Positions 49,378 through 55,614 are shown, counted from the first letter of the stretch. The stretch: DNA of 55,616 nt from Chloroflexota bacterium (GCA_024277995.1 JAJRUD010000116.1:1-55616); one strand, 5' to 3'. Made by a program: numbers and translations. The notes: generated by a model from the letters alone, not told the origin.

Positions 49378-51687
49378 ATGACGACAAGGACATCAGAGGG
49401 ACCCCATCCATCCGATCGGCACTCCGAATCGGTTGGAACTGGAGTCGCGCAGAGCAGATTCGCGCAGGCGCTGCACGAAGCTGCTCTGGCCCTGAGTGCT
49501 GAAACGGATCACGCGCGACTGCTGGACAGGATCCTGGAGCAGGCCATGCTCGCCATCCCCTGCGACGCGGCCAACATCCTCAGCTACGAGGGAAAGCTGA
49601 GCAGGGTCCTGAAGGGGCGCGGCTATGAGCGCTTCGGGACCGCGCGCGCGGAGATTGAAGGCACCACTTTCGCGATCGACGAATATACAACGTTACGCAA
49701 AATGGTGAGCGGCCAGGCGATGGTCATCCCCGACACGGCACAAGACCCCTGCTGGGTCATCCGTCCCGGCTTCGAGTGGCTGCGTTCCTGGGTCGGGGCT
49801 CCCATCCTGCATGGCGGCATCCTGATGGGGTTCATAAACCTGGACAGCGCCACCGCCAACGCTTTCAACCAAGACACCGTTGACCGACTGCGCGCTTTCG
49901 CCGCCCACGTCGCGGCCGCCATGCAACGCACCCGGCTTTACGAACAATTGCGGGGCGAACACGCCCGGCTGCAGCATATCCACGCCATCAGCCGACGCCT
50001 GGCGGGCGTGCTGGACCGGGATGCAGTTCTCACCAACCTGTTATGGGGCAGCCTTGAAGCCATCGACGGCGAGATGGCATTGATCTACTTGCTGCGAGGC
50101 GATCGCGGGCAGCCGCACCTTCAGGCGTGGATATCGCGCCTGGACACGTTGGATCCGCTGGCTTCGCATCCCATGGCCAGCGACCTGGCGCGCGAGACGG
50201 TGGAACGGCGGCGCAGTCTCAGCAGAGCCTATACCATAAAGGGCAAGCGGTATTGGACGCTGGGCTTTCCCCTGCTTTCGGGAGAATGGACGTGGGGCGC
50301 CGGGATCATCTGGCTTGCGTCAGAGGCAGAGCCTGATGGCTCATGGCTCAACGTCTTCGACACCGTGGGCCAGCAGGCGGGCTTGGCACTGCGCAGTGCG
50401 ATGCAGCATACAGAGGTGCAGCGCAGACTGCGCGAAATGATGGTCTTGCAGCGCGTCGTGGGTGCCGTCGCCAAGCGGCTGAGTCCTGACGAGATGATGG
50501 CCGAACTGGTGGTGCAGTTGCATCAAGAGCTTAACTTCCCGGCCGTCCAATTGCTGCTACGGGAGGGGGATTCGCTGGTCGTGCGCCATTTCAGCGGGCC
50601 GCGCCCGCTCATCGATGAGATGCCCATGGGGCGGGGGATCATCGGCCACGTGGTCGAAACAGGGAAGCCAGCGCTGGTGCGCGACGTTCGGCAAGACCCC
50701 CATTATGTCGCGCTCCTGGTGGGCACGCGTGCCGAAGCCGCCGTGCCCATCCGCCAGGGAGATCAAACAGTGGGCGTGCTCAACGTTGAGACTGCAGACC
50801 AGTCGCAGATCAACCACGAGAGCGTATCCCTGCTCTCCACCATTGCTGATCAGGTGGCGGTGGCCCTGCACAACGCAGCTCTATACGATGAACTGCGCCG
50901 CAACATGGAAGAGCTTGAGGACCGCGTTGAGGCCCGCACACGCCAGCTCCGCATCGCGCTCGAACAGGCGCATGCTGCGGAGCGCGCCAAGTCACAATTC
51001 GTGGCTGACGTATCGCACGAGTTGCGCACGCCGCTGACGAACATCGGTCTTTACCTGGATCTACTGGACATCGGCGCCAAGGAACGACGCGAAGAGTACA
51101 TGGCGACCCTGCGCCGCGAGACGGCGCGCCTGGGATCCCTGATCGAGCAATTGCTCAACATCGCGCGCCTGGACAGCGGCCAGCTCGAGCTGCGCGGCCA
51201 GGCGATCGATCTGTCCGCACTTGTGCAGGTCCTTGTCGATGACCGCAGGAAACACATTGGAGAGAAAGGCCTGTCCTTGCAGGTCAATAAGCAGCCTGAT
51301 CTGCCCCTGGTCTGGGTGGATCCCCGACTGATCCTGCAAGTGATGGGCAATCTGCTGAGCAACGCGATCCATTACACTCCTTCCGGCGGTGATATCTGGC
51401 TGAGCACCGAGCTACGCAGTCGGGAGGGGACCCAATGGATCACTTTTTCCGTTCGCGACACCGGCCCCGGCATCCCCGAGGAGGAGCGCGACAAGATATT
51501 CGACCGCTTCTTCCGGGGCGTCGCCGGCCGAACAAGCGGGCTTTCCGGCACCGGACTTGGCCTGGCCATTTCGAAGGAGATCGTCGAGAGGCACGGGGGC
51601 ACGATCACTCTGGATTCGCACGGCGGTCAAGGGGCATGCTTCACGGTCTGGTTGCCTTCGCTGAAAGACCACCATTCATTCCAGTGA
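49378..51687 (+). CDS. Cytoplasmic multi-GAF sensor histidine kinase
   Basis: About 3 GAF-like repeats, SHELRTPL, NLLSNA, DTGPGI, GTGLGL; no TM. Confidence 0.93.
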   Translation: MTTRTSEGPHPSDRHSESVGTGVAQSRFAQALHEAALALSAETDHARLLDRILEQAMLAIPCDAANILSYEGKLSRVLKGRGYERFGTARAEIEGTTFAIDEYTTLRKMVSGQAMVIPDTAQDPCWVIRPGFEWLRSWVGAPILHGGILMGFINLDSATANAFNQDTVDRLRAFAAHVAAAMQRTRLYEQLRGEHARLQHIHAISRRLAGVLDRDAVLTNLLWGSLEAIDGEMALIYLLRGDRGQPHLQAWISRLDTLDPLASHPMASDLARETVERRRSLSRAYTIKGKRYWTLGFPLLSGEWTWGAGIIWLASEAEPDGSWLNVFDTVGQQAGLALRSAMQHTEVQRRLREMMVLQRVVGAVAKRLSPDEMMAELVVQLHQELNFPAVQLLLREGDSLVVRHFSGPRPLIDEMPMGRGIIGHVVETGKPALVRDVRQDPHYVALLVGTRAEAAVPIRQGDQTVGVLNVETADQSQINHESVSLLSTIADQVAVALHNAALYDELRRNMEELEDRVEARTRQLRIALEQAHAAERAKSQFVADVSHELRTPLTNIGLYLDLLDIGAKERREEYMATLRRETARLGSLIEQLLNIARLDSGQLELRGQAIDLSALVQVLVDDRRKHIGEKGLSLQVNKQPDLPLVWVDPRLILQVMGNLLSNAIHYTPSGGDIWLSTELRSREGTQWITFSVRDTGPGIPEEERDKIFDRFFRGVAGRTSGLSGTGLGLAISKEIVERHGGTITLDSHGGQGACFTVWLPSLKDHHSFQ

Positions 51688-51762
51688 ACGCATGACCTTG
51701 CGAAGATTCCCTTGGCGGGGGATAATCGGGCTTGCAGTTCTGGGTTGGATGGGAGCTATGAG

Positions 51763-52821
51763 ATGGTAGGTGTGCCCAATAGGGACAGCGCTGTCACCCT
51801 GCTTGTCGTCGAAGATGACCCCGCCATGCTGGTGGCGTTGCGCGATATCCTGGAGAGCGCCGGCTACAACGTGCTGACAGCACCCAACGGGAAGATCGCC
51901 CTGGACATCCTGGAAAACGCGCGCCCGGCGCTCATCCTGTCGGATATCTCGATGCCCGTCATGGATGGCATTCAGCTCTTCGAGGCCGTCCGCAAGCTAC
52001 CACGCGGCATGGCCACGCCCTTCATATTCCTGACGGCCAAAGGCACGCGCGAAGATATATTTGCCGGAAAGATGATGGGTGCTGACGACTATATCACCAA
52101 GCCCATCACCAGCCATGAACTCATCACAGCCGTGCAATCCCGACTGCAGCGCGCCGACGAGATCATGGTCGCGCAGCTGAAGGAAGCCTACAAAGCCAGC
52201 CTGCGCACCCTGGCCAACGCCATTGAGGCCCGGGACCACTATACCCGCGACCACGTCGAACGCGTCAATGCCTACGCCCAGGCCTTGGCCATGGAATTGG
52301 GCTGGGACGAGGACCGCCGCGACGCGCTCGAATTCGGCTCGATACTGCACGACATCGGCAAGATCGCCGTGCGTGAGGCCATCCTGTGCAAACCAGGGCC
52401 GCTCACTACAGAGGAGTGGGCGGAGATGCGCCTGCATCCCGAAGTGGGCGCTCACATGATTGAAGGTATCCCCTATCTGGCGCCGGCGGTCCCGAGTGTG
52501 CTGCACCATCACGAGCGCTGGGATGGGAGCGGTTACCCTCATGCGCTGCGGGGCGACGCCATACCTGAGGACGCCCGCTTGCTGGCGGTCGTTGACACCT
52601 TTGATGCCATGACCTCTGACAGACCCTATCGGCCGGCCATGGAATTCGAGCGCGCTTTCGAGGTCATCCTTGAGGAATCGGGCCGCCTCTTCGATCCGAC
52701 CATGGTCGACTCGTTCCAGCGTTGCTGGTCGCGCGGCGAGATCCAGCGCATCGCGATGACCGCCGAGCCCACCAAGCCCACCCATTTGTCGTCTGGTTCA
52801 CGGCAGAGCGCCAAGAGCTAG
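51763..52821 (+). CDS. Response regulator with HD-GYP (c-di-GMP phosphodiesterase) output
   Basis: VEDD, SDISMP, TKP receiver; HDIGK, HHERWDGSGYP. Confidence 0.93.
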   Translation: MVGVPNRDSAVTLLVVEDDPAMLVALRDILESAGYNVLTAPNGKIALDILENARPALILSDISMPVMDGIQLFEAVRKLPRGMATPFIFLTAKGTREDIFAGKMMGADDYITKPITSHELITAVQSRLQRADEIMVAQLKEAYKASLRTLANAIEARDHYTRDHVERVNAYAQALAMELGWDEDRRDALEFGSILHDIGKIAVREAILCKPGPLTTEEWAEMRLHPEVGAHMIEGIPYLAPAVPSVLHHHERWDGSGYPHALRGDAIPEDARLLAVVDTFDAMTSDRPYRPAMEFERAFEVILEESGRLFDPTMVDSFQRCWSRGEIQRIAMTAEPTKPTHLSSGSRQSAKS

Positions 52822-53009
52822 CCGGAGCTCTCTCGCATCACGGGGCAGGGGGGCGTGCCCGCCGGCTCTCTCGAATGGTCGCCTCGCTTGCCAGCGCGCC
52901 CCTCGCCCTTCTCCGGCCCCGATCGGCAGCACCTCGCGCGCTAGGACTGCGAAAGCAGGAGGGTGGGGTGCTCGTTGACGGGAGACAGGATTTGGAATAA
53001 AATTGCCAT

Positions 53010-53037
53010 GCTTGCGATAAGTATCATTAGCGTTAGC
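53010..53037. other. dif-like recombination site (11-6-11)
   Basis: GCTTGCGATAA-GTATCA-TTAGCGTTAGC; arms 8/11 inverted identity (11/14 over 53007-53040); directly upstream of a Xer-type gene. Confidence 0.7.
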
Positions 53038-53065
53038 ATGACTTCTTCCAGTCAGGACGGCGCTC

Positions 53066-54085
53066 ATGGCCAACAACGATCGCCATAATGCACCCGACGC
53101 CCGCTCTTTCACGGTCCAGGACGCGATCCTGGCCTATCTGGACAGCGTGCGCCTGGCCCGCAGCGCCAACACGGCGCGCACATACCGCAACGCGCTGCGC
53201 TCTTTCTCCGCCTCGCTCGCATCCCATGGCATCGACCCACACGATAATGCAGCCTCTGCGGCCAAAGAAGATTGGATTATCCCTTTCATCGGCGATCTGA
53301 AACCCTTTGCGCCGGCCACCGAGCGCCTCTACCTCACGGCCGTCGCCGGATGGTACGAATACCTCGCCGCCGAGGGTATGGCGCCCATCAACCTGCCACG
53401 CCTGCGCCTGCTCATCCGTCGGCGTGCCCGGCGCCCCGGCCAACGCCTGCCACAGTTTCCGCGGCACGCCATCGAATCCATCCTCGCATATGCAACCTAT
53501 CTTACAGCACGCCCGGTGCGCGACAAGGCTGAACGTTTGCGAAATCTGCGCGACCGCGCCTTCCTGTTGACCCTGGCCGATACGGGCCTGCGCGTGCACG
53601 AGGCCTGCGCCTTGCGGCGCGGCGATGTCGATTGGGGTGAAGCCAAGGCCGTCATCGTCGGCAAAGGCGATCGCGAGGCCGTCGTTCGCTTCTCCTCACG
53701 CTCCCTGAGCGCCATTAAGGACTATCTGGCGGCACGCAGTGAGCTCGACGGCGCCTGCGGCAAGCCCTTGGCTTCCCTGCCGCTCTTCGCCCGTCACGAT
53801 AGAGGCGCCGGCAGGCGCGTGCTTCCCATATCCACCACCACTGGCCGCACCATCGTCCACCAACGCGCGCGCCAGGCCATCGGAAAGGAGAGCGAAGGTA
53901 ACATAACACCGCATTCCTTCCGCCACTATTTCGTCACAACCGTCCTCCGAGGCTCAGGCGGCAACCTCAAGCTCGCTCAGGAGCTGGCCCGCCACCGCAA
54001 CATCGCCGTCACGCAGCGCTACGCCCACCTGTCGGACGATGAATTGGACCGCGGCTACCATGAGATCTTCGAGGGCGACGGCTGA
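53066..54085 (+). CDS. Xer-type tyrosine recombinase
   Basis: SANTARTY N-terminal domain; catalytic R (TGLRVHE), K (GKG), HxxR (HSFRH), H (ARH), Y (TQRY). Confidence 0.93.
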   Translation: MANNDRHNAPDARSFTVQDAILAYLDSVRLARSANTARTYRNALRSFSASLASHGIDPHDNAASAAKEDWIIPFIGDLKPFAPATERLYLTAVAGWYEYLAAEGMAPINLPRLRLLIRRRARRPGQRLPQFPRHAIESILAYATYLTARPVRDKAERLRNLRDRAFLLTLADTGLRVHEACALRRGDVDWGEAKAVIVGKGDREAVVRFSSRSLSAIKDYLAARSELDGACGKPLASLPLFARHDRGAGRRVLPISTTTGRTIVHQRARQAIGKESEGNITPHSFRHYFVTTVLRGSGGNLKLAQELARHRNIAVTQRYAHLSDDELDRGYHEIFEGDG

Positions 54086-54306
54086 TCCCCACTCAAGCGA
54101 CGCGCCCCTATCCCGAGGCGGAAGTGACGTGGAAAATCCGAACAGCCCGCTGGCAAGATTCCCGCCTTGCTCTGGGCGTGGCAGCGGCCAGTCTCGCGTT
54201 CGGCAGCGGGCTGTGCGCCCTGGTCGTCCTGCGCCAGAGATGGCTGCCCGTGGCGGGTACGCCAAAGCGCGTCAACCATCCGCATGCGTGAACTGGCGTC
54301 CGCTTC

Positions 54307-55614
54307 TCAACGGGCCAACCACATGTTCTGGTGCTGCGGTACTCCAATCGGCGATGGGACGTAACCTCTCACATACGGCTTAAGGACCATGTAAGCCACA
54401 CCTGGGTGACTGAGAAACAACGCCGGCGCCTCCTCCCAAAGCTTTGCCTGCGCATCGCGATAGAAGGTCAAACGCCGCTCGCGAGTGGTTTCGACTCGCG
54501 CCGCTTCCACCAATGCGTCGTATGTCGCGGAGCGGTAGGCCGAGTGATTCTGCGGTGACGCGCTGTGGAAGAGCACGTCGAAGAAGTTCTCGGGGTCCGG
54601 GTAGTCGGCGCACCAGCCCTCCATGAGCAAATGGCTGTACTCGCCCGCGTCGAGCCGGTCGAAGTAGCTGCGGACATCGATCCCTTCCAGCAAGATCTCG
54701 ACCCCGAGCTCGCGCTCCCAGGCATCGCCCAAGAAAGCCACCGACCCCGAGACGCGCCCGCTGCTGCTGGGGACTGTCCACACGATCTGCGGCAGTTGCC
54801 CTCCATAGCTGGACTGCTCCAGGAGCGCGCGCGCCGTGGTGGGATCAAACTCCGGGCCGCGCGCCTGCGGGTCATAGCCCGGCATGCCCGGCGGGAGCAA
54901 GCCCTCGGCTACCACATCCTCGCCGTTGGTCACGGCCTCAACGTATCCGGCCCGGTCTATCGCCAGCACGAAAGCGCGCCGGACCAGCGGGTCATCAAAT
55001 GGTGCAAGGCGCGTGTTGAAGGTCACGTAAAAGGTGCAGAACCTCAGCTCAGTCAGGATGTTGCCGTAGAGGCCATCGGCGGGGTTCTGGGCCCGCGCCA
55101 TCTGATCGCGTGTGATGCCCGTCATGTCCACTTCACCCAGCTCGTAGAGCTGCTGGGCGTATCCTTGATACATGCTGTATACGAGGTATTCCAGCCTCGG
55201 TGGATCCGCATAGTGAAAGGGATTGGCCTCCAGGACCAGGATCCGGTTCTCCAGATGTTGCACCTGACGGAAAGGCCCAGTCCCATTGGGATGCAGTTCC
55301 CAATTGGGAAGGGTTACGTTGTAGCGGTCTACCACCCAGGAAACCGGGTAAGCCAGCTTCGCAAGGAAATAGGGCTTCGGGCCATCCAGGGTCACCTGCA
55401 GCGTGCGATCATCCAGCACCCGGACGCCCTCTATGCGCTGGGCCTGCCCGGCGCGATAGGCCGCCAGGCCCACAATATCTCCCATGTAGAGCAGCACTGT
55501 CTCTGAGCCGGTTTCGGGGCTGGCGGCCCGTTCCCAACTGAACAGCACATCCCAGGCCGTCAGCGGCCGCCCGTTATGGAAGCGCGCGTTGTGACGCAGG
55601 TAGAAGGTGTATAC
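54307..55614 (-). CDS. Peptide ABC transporter substrate-binding protein (OppA family), 5' truncated by the window edge
   Basis: FHNGRPLTAWDV, NGTGPF, PFDDPLVRRAF, GWCADYPDP. Confidence 0.92.
   Translation of the reverse strand, partial: VYTFYLRHNARFHNGRPLTAWDVLFSWERAASPETGSETVLLYMGDIVGLAAYRAGQAQRIEGVRVLDDRTLQVTLDGPKPYFLAKLAYPVSWVVDRYNVTLPNWELHPNGTGPFRQVQHLENRILVLEANPFHYADPPRLEYLVYSMYQGYAQQLYELGEVDMTGITRDQMARAQNPADGLYGNILTELRFCTFYVTFNTRLAPFDDPLVRRAFVLAIDRAGYVEAVTNGEDVVAEGLLPPGMPGYDPQARGPEFDPTTARALLEQSSYGGQLPQIVWTVPSSSGRVSGSVAFLGDAWERELGVEILLEGIDVRSYFDRLDAGEYSHLLMEGWCADYPDPENFFDVLFHSASPQNHSAYRSATYDALVEAARVETTRERRLTFYRDAQAKLWEEAPALFLSHPGVAYMVLKPYVRGYVPSPIGVPQHQNMWLAR

Follow-up and report, generated by a model that had tools for sequence, protein, structure and literature searches.

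What is the function of a short palindrome which lies directly in front of a tyrosine recombinase gene in a bacterium of the phylum Chloroflexota? The question is raised by a stretch of 55,616 nucleotides (GCA_024277995.1 JAJRUD010000116.1:1-55616), in the following called the window, for which a first-pass annotation had proposed a self-contained Xer/dif module, that is a dif-like site next to a single recombinase gene. The genome of the window (G000) is a metagenome-assembled genome (MAG) of 3.36 Mb in 272 contigs and is 86% complete. As far as can be judged from sequence, the palindrome at 53008-53039 is quite probably the dif site of this Anaerolineales bacterium and the substrate of the adjacent enzyme, and the best reading of the module is a lineage-specific Xer/dif system which would resolve chromosome dimers with one recombinase. 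That the enzyme acts alone is less certain, and so is the repression of its own gene. The site and the gene are composed as follows:

53008-53020, + strand: left arm of the site, ATGCTTGCGATAA, the better-conserved half with an invariant or nearly invariant inner GATAA
53021-53026, + strand: central region of 6 bp, GTATCA, asymmetric, presumed region of strand exchange
53027-53039, + strand: right arm of the site, TTAGCGTTAGCAT, the looser half
53066-54085, + strand: tyrosine recombinase gene, 339 amino acids (aa), two-domain ('simple') enzyme

The site and its conservation

The 34-nt string CATGCTTGCGATAA-GTATCA-TTAGCGTTAGCATG (53007-53040, + strand), whose 14-nt arms agree at 11 of 14 positions when read by eye, is unique in the window at up to three mismatches, and none of 100 shuffles gave a match. 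Among 70 distinct sites the conserved unit is 32 bp long (53008-53039) and consists of two 13-bp arms around a 6-bp centre. The AT-rich imperfect palindrome with an ATAA-N6-TTA core, as first described, could be retained, but not the 11-6-11 geometry given with it, and 14-6-14 is not the conserved unit either. With two inverted arms and a short centre the site has the size and shape of a dif site (about 28-34 bp).

The consensus of the 70 sites reads ATGSTTNYGATAA-GTAYYA-TTATCNNAARCAT. Within the left arm G13, T15, A16 and A17 are found in all 70 sites and A14 in 68. The centre has G in 65, T in 70, A in 62, T in 50, C in 38 (T in 26) and A in 70 sites, and the right arm begins with TTA throughout, followed by T (57/70) and C (50/70). 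The two arms of a site are identical at 8 to 13 of 13 positions, 10 being the commonest value. Because the conserved centre is not self-complementary, the site has a direction.

Of 41 relatives, 31 have an orthologue of the recombinase (49-72% identity), and a species-level genome collection contains at least 575 loci which encode a relative, the lineage being the Anaerolineales within the Chloroflexota. We searched the region upstream of the gene (350 bp in 80 Anaerolineales loci, 400 bp in 30 loci of further relatives) for the 14-nt core GATAAGTATCATTA and found it with at most three mismatches in 71 of the 80 and in 23 of the 30 loci. The rest of the smaller set comprises two recognisable variants, two or three loci cut by contig ends, one copy without a centre and one locus without any site. 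A profile built from the 70 distinct sites matches exactly once in 75 of the 80 Anaerolineales loci, always upstream of the gene and at a median distance of 43 nt before the protein match, and all 75 sites face the gene in the same direction. The motif was thus conserved upstream of orthologues, as it had to be for the first proposal to hold. When 123 loci were scanned with the profile, 103 gave one hit cluster, 20 none and no locus two.

The same picture emerges from whole genomes. With up to three mismatches allowed, the 19-nt centre of the site has no second match anywhere in the 3.36-Mb MAG, and a 32-nt degenerate pattern, run against the 41 genomes, matches with no or one mismatch only beside the recombinase gene, once per genome; further matches with two mismatches are not palindromic and about as frequent as control matches. 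Among the 41 relatives the site is absent from those genomes which have no orthologue. The expected count of one per genome was accordingly found. In even samples the module is present in 15 of 201 genomes of the class and in 20 of 251 genomes of the phylum. All carriers of the phylum sample belong to the order of the window, and a few carriers of the class sample belong to sister families.

More distant orthologues keep the layout of the site, while the arms have changed:

Family f14: ATGTTTTCGATAA-GTATTA-TTATCGAAAACAT, running into the -35 box of a TTGACA-17-TATAAT promoter
Family f32: ATGATTCGGATAG-TAAACC-TTATCCGAATCAT, directly after a TATAAT box
A relative with 36-39% identity: TGGTTAGTTTAA-TGTCAG-TTAAACGAACCA, after a TTGACA promoter

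Site and recombinase change jointly, as expected of a protein and its binding site.

Position of the site relative to the terminus

A dif site should lie where the two replichores meet, and in three of four long assemblies (G036, G042 and G044) the site is found 5-10 kb from the maximum of the cumulative GC skew. G036 is a closed chromosome of 6,366,660 bp with dnaA at 4.314 Mb and the site at 1,452,749, which is 45% of the chromosome away from dnaA. Positive values prevail in its sampled skew between about 4.2 Mb and 1.28 Mb (across position 0), and negative ones between 1.6 and 3.8 Mb; the cumulative maximum, determined on a contiguous 400-kb stretch, is at about 1.445 Mb, and the skew beside the site is +0.023 on the left and -0.041 on the right. 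In the long MAG contigs of G042 and G044 the maxima are at about 1.712 Mb and 1.229 Mb, and the sites at 1,717,058 and 1,239,149, respectively. The first-pass annotation had allowed for a canonical XerCD/dif elsewhere at the skew extremum. In these three assemblies it is the site itself that lies near the extremum, but two others (G041 and G164, see below) fit poorly.

The window contributes one flank to this comparison:

1-53006, + strand: flank whose strand composition and motifs resembling FtsK orienting polar sequences (KOPS) point at the site

Its GC skew is +0.09 to +0.18 over 1-47.5 kb and at most +0.014 from there on, so that the turn is located about 5 kb before the site.

To obtain polar motifs we ranked 8-mers blindly by their polarity around the site. 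The most polar ones are GGGCAGGG, which occurs 79 times pointing toward the site and 9 times away from it, and GGGTGGGG (73:8). The former matches GGGNAGGG, the KOPS consensus from work on E. coli; a polar motif matching it is thus also shared with the XerC/XerD-dif system. The forward/reverse counts of GGGNAGGG on the two sides of the site are:

G036: left 18/4, right 3/17; fitted switch 735 bp from the site
G042: left 42/9, right 10/58; fitted switch 150 bp from the site
G044: left 21/3, right 9/36; fitted switch 7.5 kb from the site
Window: left 15/1, right 1/0 (only 2.6 kb); not used for finding the motif

The polarity flips 0.15-7.5 kb from the site in three of four assemblies, which is the convergence of motifs expected at a dif site. 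The pooled GGGNAGGG class has a ratio of 192:38 (5.05:1), compared to 1.89:1 for a control of other 8-mers that contain six or more G, and the leading-strand G/C ratio is only 1.07-1.10. Two FtsK genes that encode a gamma domain are present in the genome of the window, and FtsK may be assumed to read the GGGNAGGG motif in the Anaerolineales lineage.

The recombinase

The open frame offers a single candidate start codon, ATG 53066, which lies 25 nt behind the end of the site, so that the distance of 28 bp given earlier had to be corrected. The 339-aa protein is a member of the tyrosine recombinase superfamily with 88.4 bits to PF00589 (cut-off 27.1). In an alignment of 22 orthologues R176, K200, H283, R286, H310 and Y319 are invariant, and the codon of the catalytic Tyr319 is at 54020-54022. 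The intact R-K-HxxR-H-Y pocket noticed in the first place is borne out by these six residues.

The best NCBIfam matches of the protein are four equivalog models of named Xer families, none of which recognises it, and no XerH model is among the matches. It scores 115.7 bits to XerC (TIGR02224, cut-off 335.15), 105.7 bits to XerD (TIGR02225, cut-off 329.6), 111.4 bits to archaeal XerA (NF040815, cut-off 220) and 45.7 bits to XerS (NF003462, cut-off 267). With scores that far under the cut-offs the enzyme is best described as a Xer-like 'simple' tyrosine recombinase outside those four named families. The AlphaFold model has a mean predicted local distance difference test score (pLDDT) of 85. The closest solved structures are the archaeal XerA proteins 5hxy and 4a8e, which take the fold ranks 1-4 and are found with E values of 4e-16 and 2e-15 by a sequence search in the PDB, and the next fold matches are the integrase of phage Brujita, an integron integrase, XerD, Cre and XerH.

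The presence of phage Brujita and integron integrases among the nearest folds would suit an integrase of a mobile element with its attachment site, or a DNA-inversion switch, and so would the cassette-like turnover suggested by an unrelated second module which replaces the first one in some genera. Nevertheless we regard this explanation as highly improbable. The site is present in one copy per genome without a paired site, the module occurs across the order and not beyond it (the 20 carriers among 251 genomes of the phylum sample), and neither a Pfam search nor the AlphaFold model indicates an arm-binding domain in the recombinase. Furthermore, no phage genes were noted beside the module in the window, and a two-component regulator is kept as neighbour in 35 of 109 loci.

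Promoter and the site as a possible operator

One promoter belongs to the module:

52975-53003, + strand: sigma-70-type promoter, TTGACG (52975-52980), 17 nt, TAAAAT (52998-53003), agreeing at 10 of 12 consensus positions

It is the only promoter-like match which a promoter scan finds in 52600-54400. The first-pass annotation had placed a promoter (TTGCGA/TAGCAT) within the site; this one is not found by the scan, and it is the different, upstream promoter that is conserved. Of 74 orthologous loci, 53 have a match of at least 10 of 12 positions within the 60 nt that precede the site, and 39 show a spacing of exactly 4 nt between the end of the -10 box and the site. With the -10 box at this distance transcription should start inside the left arm, and a bound recombinase would block RNA polymerase, as it would in f14, where the site overlaps the -35 box. 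From this arrangement it appears plausible that the recombinase represses its own gene.

The palindrome could then be an operator for self-repression only, the real target of the recombinase being located elsewhere. In both layouts the site adjoins the promoter or shares sequence with it (at the transcription start in the family of the window, at the -35 box in f14), which agrees with such a role. We consider it very unlikely, because no second similar site was found in any genome searched, because an operator has no reason to sit at the switch of skew and KOPS polarity, and because a conserved 6-bp centre which is asymmetric and flanked by ATAA and TTA is a feature of recombination sites. The operator of a regulon, such as a Fur box, which the palindrome resembles, was rejected since the site is single-copy.

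At the start of the transcript, where the site is located in the family of the window, a palindrome might also form a hairpin in the 5' untranslated region, and position 12/29 is indeed often T with G. A structured RNA is however largely refuted and the least probable of the explanations: Rfam gives no match, and arm positions face each other in combinations which RNA could not pair (G/G, C/A or G/A in 30 of the 70 sites at one position, G/A or G/G in 20 of 70 at another). The f14 site, being located ahead of the -10 box, is not transcribed.

One enzyme or two

The MAG holds four matches to PF00589: the gene of the module, a XerD-like gene without the catalytic tyrosine, a degenerate copy and a fragment of an integron integrase. 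The XerD-like paralogue is the one that matters for the number of enzymes:

G000:C100:55766-56626 (L001:1477-2340), minus strand: XerD-like paralogue, 287 aa

It adjoins a gene which by eye was named purine nucleoside phosphorylase-like. The protein ends with LLGLSSPNSIRSHRSGR (LLGLSSPNxIR) and has neither His-II nor the nucleophilic Tyr. The paralogue is present in 22 of 24 genomes of the family, which makes 23 copies together with the genome of the window; two of them are unreadable and all 21 readable family copies have lost His-II and Tyr. Because the same loss is found in all of these 21 copies it is not due to a slip in the assembly. Four XerD-like copies from other families of the order keep LLGHANLSTT[QL][IV]Y. 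A search with a threshold of E <= 1e-30 did not find the paralogue in 12 of 16 further families of this order, and nine of those twelve carry the module.

The idea of a single enzyme stands in so far as the only XerD-like paralogue is catalytically dead, but a conserved dead protein could still be a partner. In a two-protein Xer system the site would be dif as well, and the module enzyme would form a hetero-complex with the Tyr-less paralogue, which would not cut but would bind to one arm or pass on the FtsK signal. The paralogue, widespread as it is in the family, keeps Arg-I and HxxR and seems to be under selection as a probable non-cutting DNA binder; the right arm of the site is looser than the left one, and an FtsK gene lies about 7 kb from the paralogue on the same contig (C100). 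On the other hand the arms are nearly identical (8-13 of 13 positions), the module occurs in nine families in which the paralogue was not found at this threshold, and the paralogue is present whichever module type a genome carries. We consider a two-protein system unlikely.

A split of the Xer system is also conceivable, although we put it forward only tentatively and think it rather doubtful. Here dif catalysis would rest wholly on the new lineage-specific recombinase, while the ancestral XerD would be kept family-wide as a DNA binder without Tyr and His for a non-catalytic job at the terminus (e.g. relay of the FtsK signal or unloading of SMC), and the cassette of recombinase and site would be replaceable by an unrelated one in some genera. 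For the reaction itself the near-symmetric arms and the presence of only one active enzyme speak for a homotetramer like those of XerH, XerS and XerA.

Proposed mechanism and observations that fit it poorly

Chromosome dimer resolution in this lineage, the function suggested at the outset, is favoured by the conservation of the site, its single copy, its position relative to skew and KOPS and the dead paralogue, with G041 and G164 as exceptions. In such a system one recombinase molecule would bind each of the nearly identical 13-bp arms. FtsK would read the G-rich polar motifs, which point to the site from both replichores, and would bring two sister sites together at the closing septum, where a tetramer of the single enzyme would exchange strands across the asymmetric 6-bp centre and turn the dimer into monomers. 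The bound recombinase would probably also repress its own gene, the -10 box of the promoter being 4 nt from the site.

Several observations weigh against this assignment. Regarding the site, five of the 80 Anaerolineales loci have none, one of them being cut by a contig end, and no such site was found in the 200 nt upstream of three f25 orthologues (49% identity) and of the f35 locus L340 (47% identity). The site copy of L016 (G013:C293), ATGCTTCCGATAAGCGCAAGCATA, located about 30 nt ahead of a recombinase gene which appears intact, is without its centre; decay, strain variation or an artefact of assembly could account for this.

Regarding the position, the MAG 'chromosome' G041 (CP070708.1; 3,405,363 bp) shows four changes of skew sign, and no more than 139 kb (4% of the genome) lie between its site at 2,789,939 and dnaA. 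A local skew minimum is next to dnaA (2.65-2.67 Mb), and the site falls within a broad plateau at the change from plus to minus. The polarity of GGGNAGGG is weak in this genome, with 21/14 on the left and 10/16 on the right. The misfit may come from misassembly or rearrangement. In the closed genome G164 (about 4.4 Mb) a distance of 0.68 Mb, about 15%, separates the gene from dnaA, and in G042 and G044 the distance from dnaA to the site is about 37% and 27% of the draft genome size instead of 50%, so that it spans 4%-45% across the assemblies. Moreover, the polar motif was picked using the position of the site, and G-rich 8-mers in general are already polar at about 1.9:1.

Regarding recombination at the site, we found no mobile element inserted there, and none of the 123 loci has two sites within about 1.5-3 kb. 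Viral contigs yielded no full site of the Anaerolineales type, the best profile score being 32.9 compared to about 37-52 for real sites (80 of 87 stretches scored). Regarding the single enzyme, the conserved Tyr-less XerD-like protein could partner the module enzyme, and a further Xer gene could be missing from the assembly of the MAG, which is 86% complete.

Relation to known Xer systems

By its predicted mechanism the module is of the same kind as XerS/difSL, XerH/difH, XerA/dif and XerL/dif, and by model scores it is outside XerC, XerD, XerA and XerS.

XerS/difSL of streptococci and lactococci likewise consists of one recombinase and a site at the terminus (Le Bourgeois 2007, PMC1914069; Castillo 2017, PMC5357621). 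The first-pass annotation had named the streptococcal system as one with the gene beside dif, and the review indeed describes the XerS gene as immediately next to difSL 'as a single module' (Castillo 2017, PMC5357621). In contrast to difSL the site presented here has a centre of 6 bp instead of 11, is 32 bp long compared to 31 bp and has nearly symmetric arms, and the XerS model does not recognise the enzyme.

With XerH/difH of Helicobacter and Campylobacter the module shares one recombinase and a near-palindromic site (Debowski 2012, PMC3325230; Bebel 2016, PMC5241119). The XerH-difH complexes 5jjv and 5jk0 are fold matches at ranks 28 and 32, distant ones with a template modelling (TM) score of about 0.4 and 18% identity. 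The likeness to XerH rests on this distant fold match, and the host phylum is a different one. Archaeal XerA/dif also works with one recombinase (Cortez 2010, PMC2958812) and provides the closest solved relatives. The host of the module however is a bacterium with gamma-domain FtsK genes, and the score to the XerA model is under its cut-off.

XerL/dif of the Legionellales is similar in being an order-restricted, divergent single-Xer system which was missed by homology-based surveys (PMC9765430). The same paper describes dif as an AT-rich palindrome of about 30 bp near the maximum of the cumulative GC skew (89 bp to 79 kb) with varying neighbours (PMC9765430), and the Anaerolineales site conforms to this description. 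Unlike in the XerL system no mobile element that would expose the site was found here; the module is known from its sequence, and the gene lies beside the site as a rule. The XerC/XerD-dif system resembles the module in arms ending with ATAA/TTA, in a 6-bp centre and in the position at the terminus (Kono 2011, PMC3025954). The module differs from it by one active enzyme, the XerD-like paralogue being catalytically dead in the family of the window, and by its scores under the cut-offs of both models.

In the available part of the 2011 survey dif sites in Chloroflexi were predicted only for three Dehalococcoides genomes (Kono 2011, PMC3025954). The main text of Smyshlyaev 2021 does not contain 'Chloroflex', and a full-text literature search gave no description of Xer/dif for Anaerolineae, although the supplementary tables of Kono 2011 and Smyshlyaev 2021 could list such proteins.

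The module offers a testable dimer-resolution system for the Anaerolineales, a large and mostly uncultured order which is common in sludge, sediments and soils. The 32-bp site could serve as a marker of the replication terminus which helps to orient and check MAG assemblies, a use illustrated by the messy G041. It adds one more independent case of a single Xer-type enzyme beside its own site, and the family-wide dead XerD and the swapping of cassettes bear on how such systems replace XerCD.

Neighbouring genes and further recombinases

The genes immediately before the site (window 49378-52821) encode a histidine kinase of the GAF type and a response regulator, the latter with the HD-GYP-like motif HHERWDGSGYP, identified by eye. 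Among 109 orthologous loci the response regulator is a neighbour in 35, the kinase in 12 and the downstream solute-binding protein in none.

A palindrome with the same inner core and different outer arms is located on an IMG/VR contig of 4,381 bp (L401:872-903), a phage fragment with a P22-like portal gene. It is an intergenic, near-perfect 13-6-13 palindrome, TTAGTTCCGATAA-GTATTA-TTATCGGAATTAA.

The degenerate recombinase copy of the MAG (G000:C224; L004:1447-2469, minus strand; 340 aa) has SFDMCRW in place of HxxR and no Tyr motif, and is conserved in relatives including the closed genome G038 (L072). The integron-type integrase (G000:C252; L003:1417-1911, minus strand) consists of the C-terminal 164 aa, scores 245 bits to TIGR02249 and runs off the contig end.

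The second module has a recombinase of 375 aa which is 27% identical to that of the window (L074:928-2052, G006:C3:302001-303125; also L320, L321, L322 and L323). Within the family of the window it is found in G001, G006, G010 and G024, all of which have no first module; G016 has both. Three of four readable loci of this type show a palindrome particular to it, AATGCAACTAA...TTATATTGCATT, behind a GGGG-TTGACA promoter of the same kind as that of the first module. The closed 2.6-Mb genome G038 (dnaA at 0.5 kb) is without both module types. It encodes a different recombinase of 357 aa (L067:1066-2139; G038:C1, about 1.493 Mb) at about 57% of the chromosome from dnaA, which may represent a third terminus-linked type.

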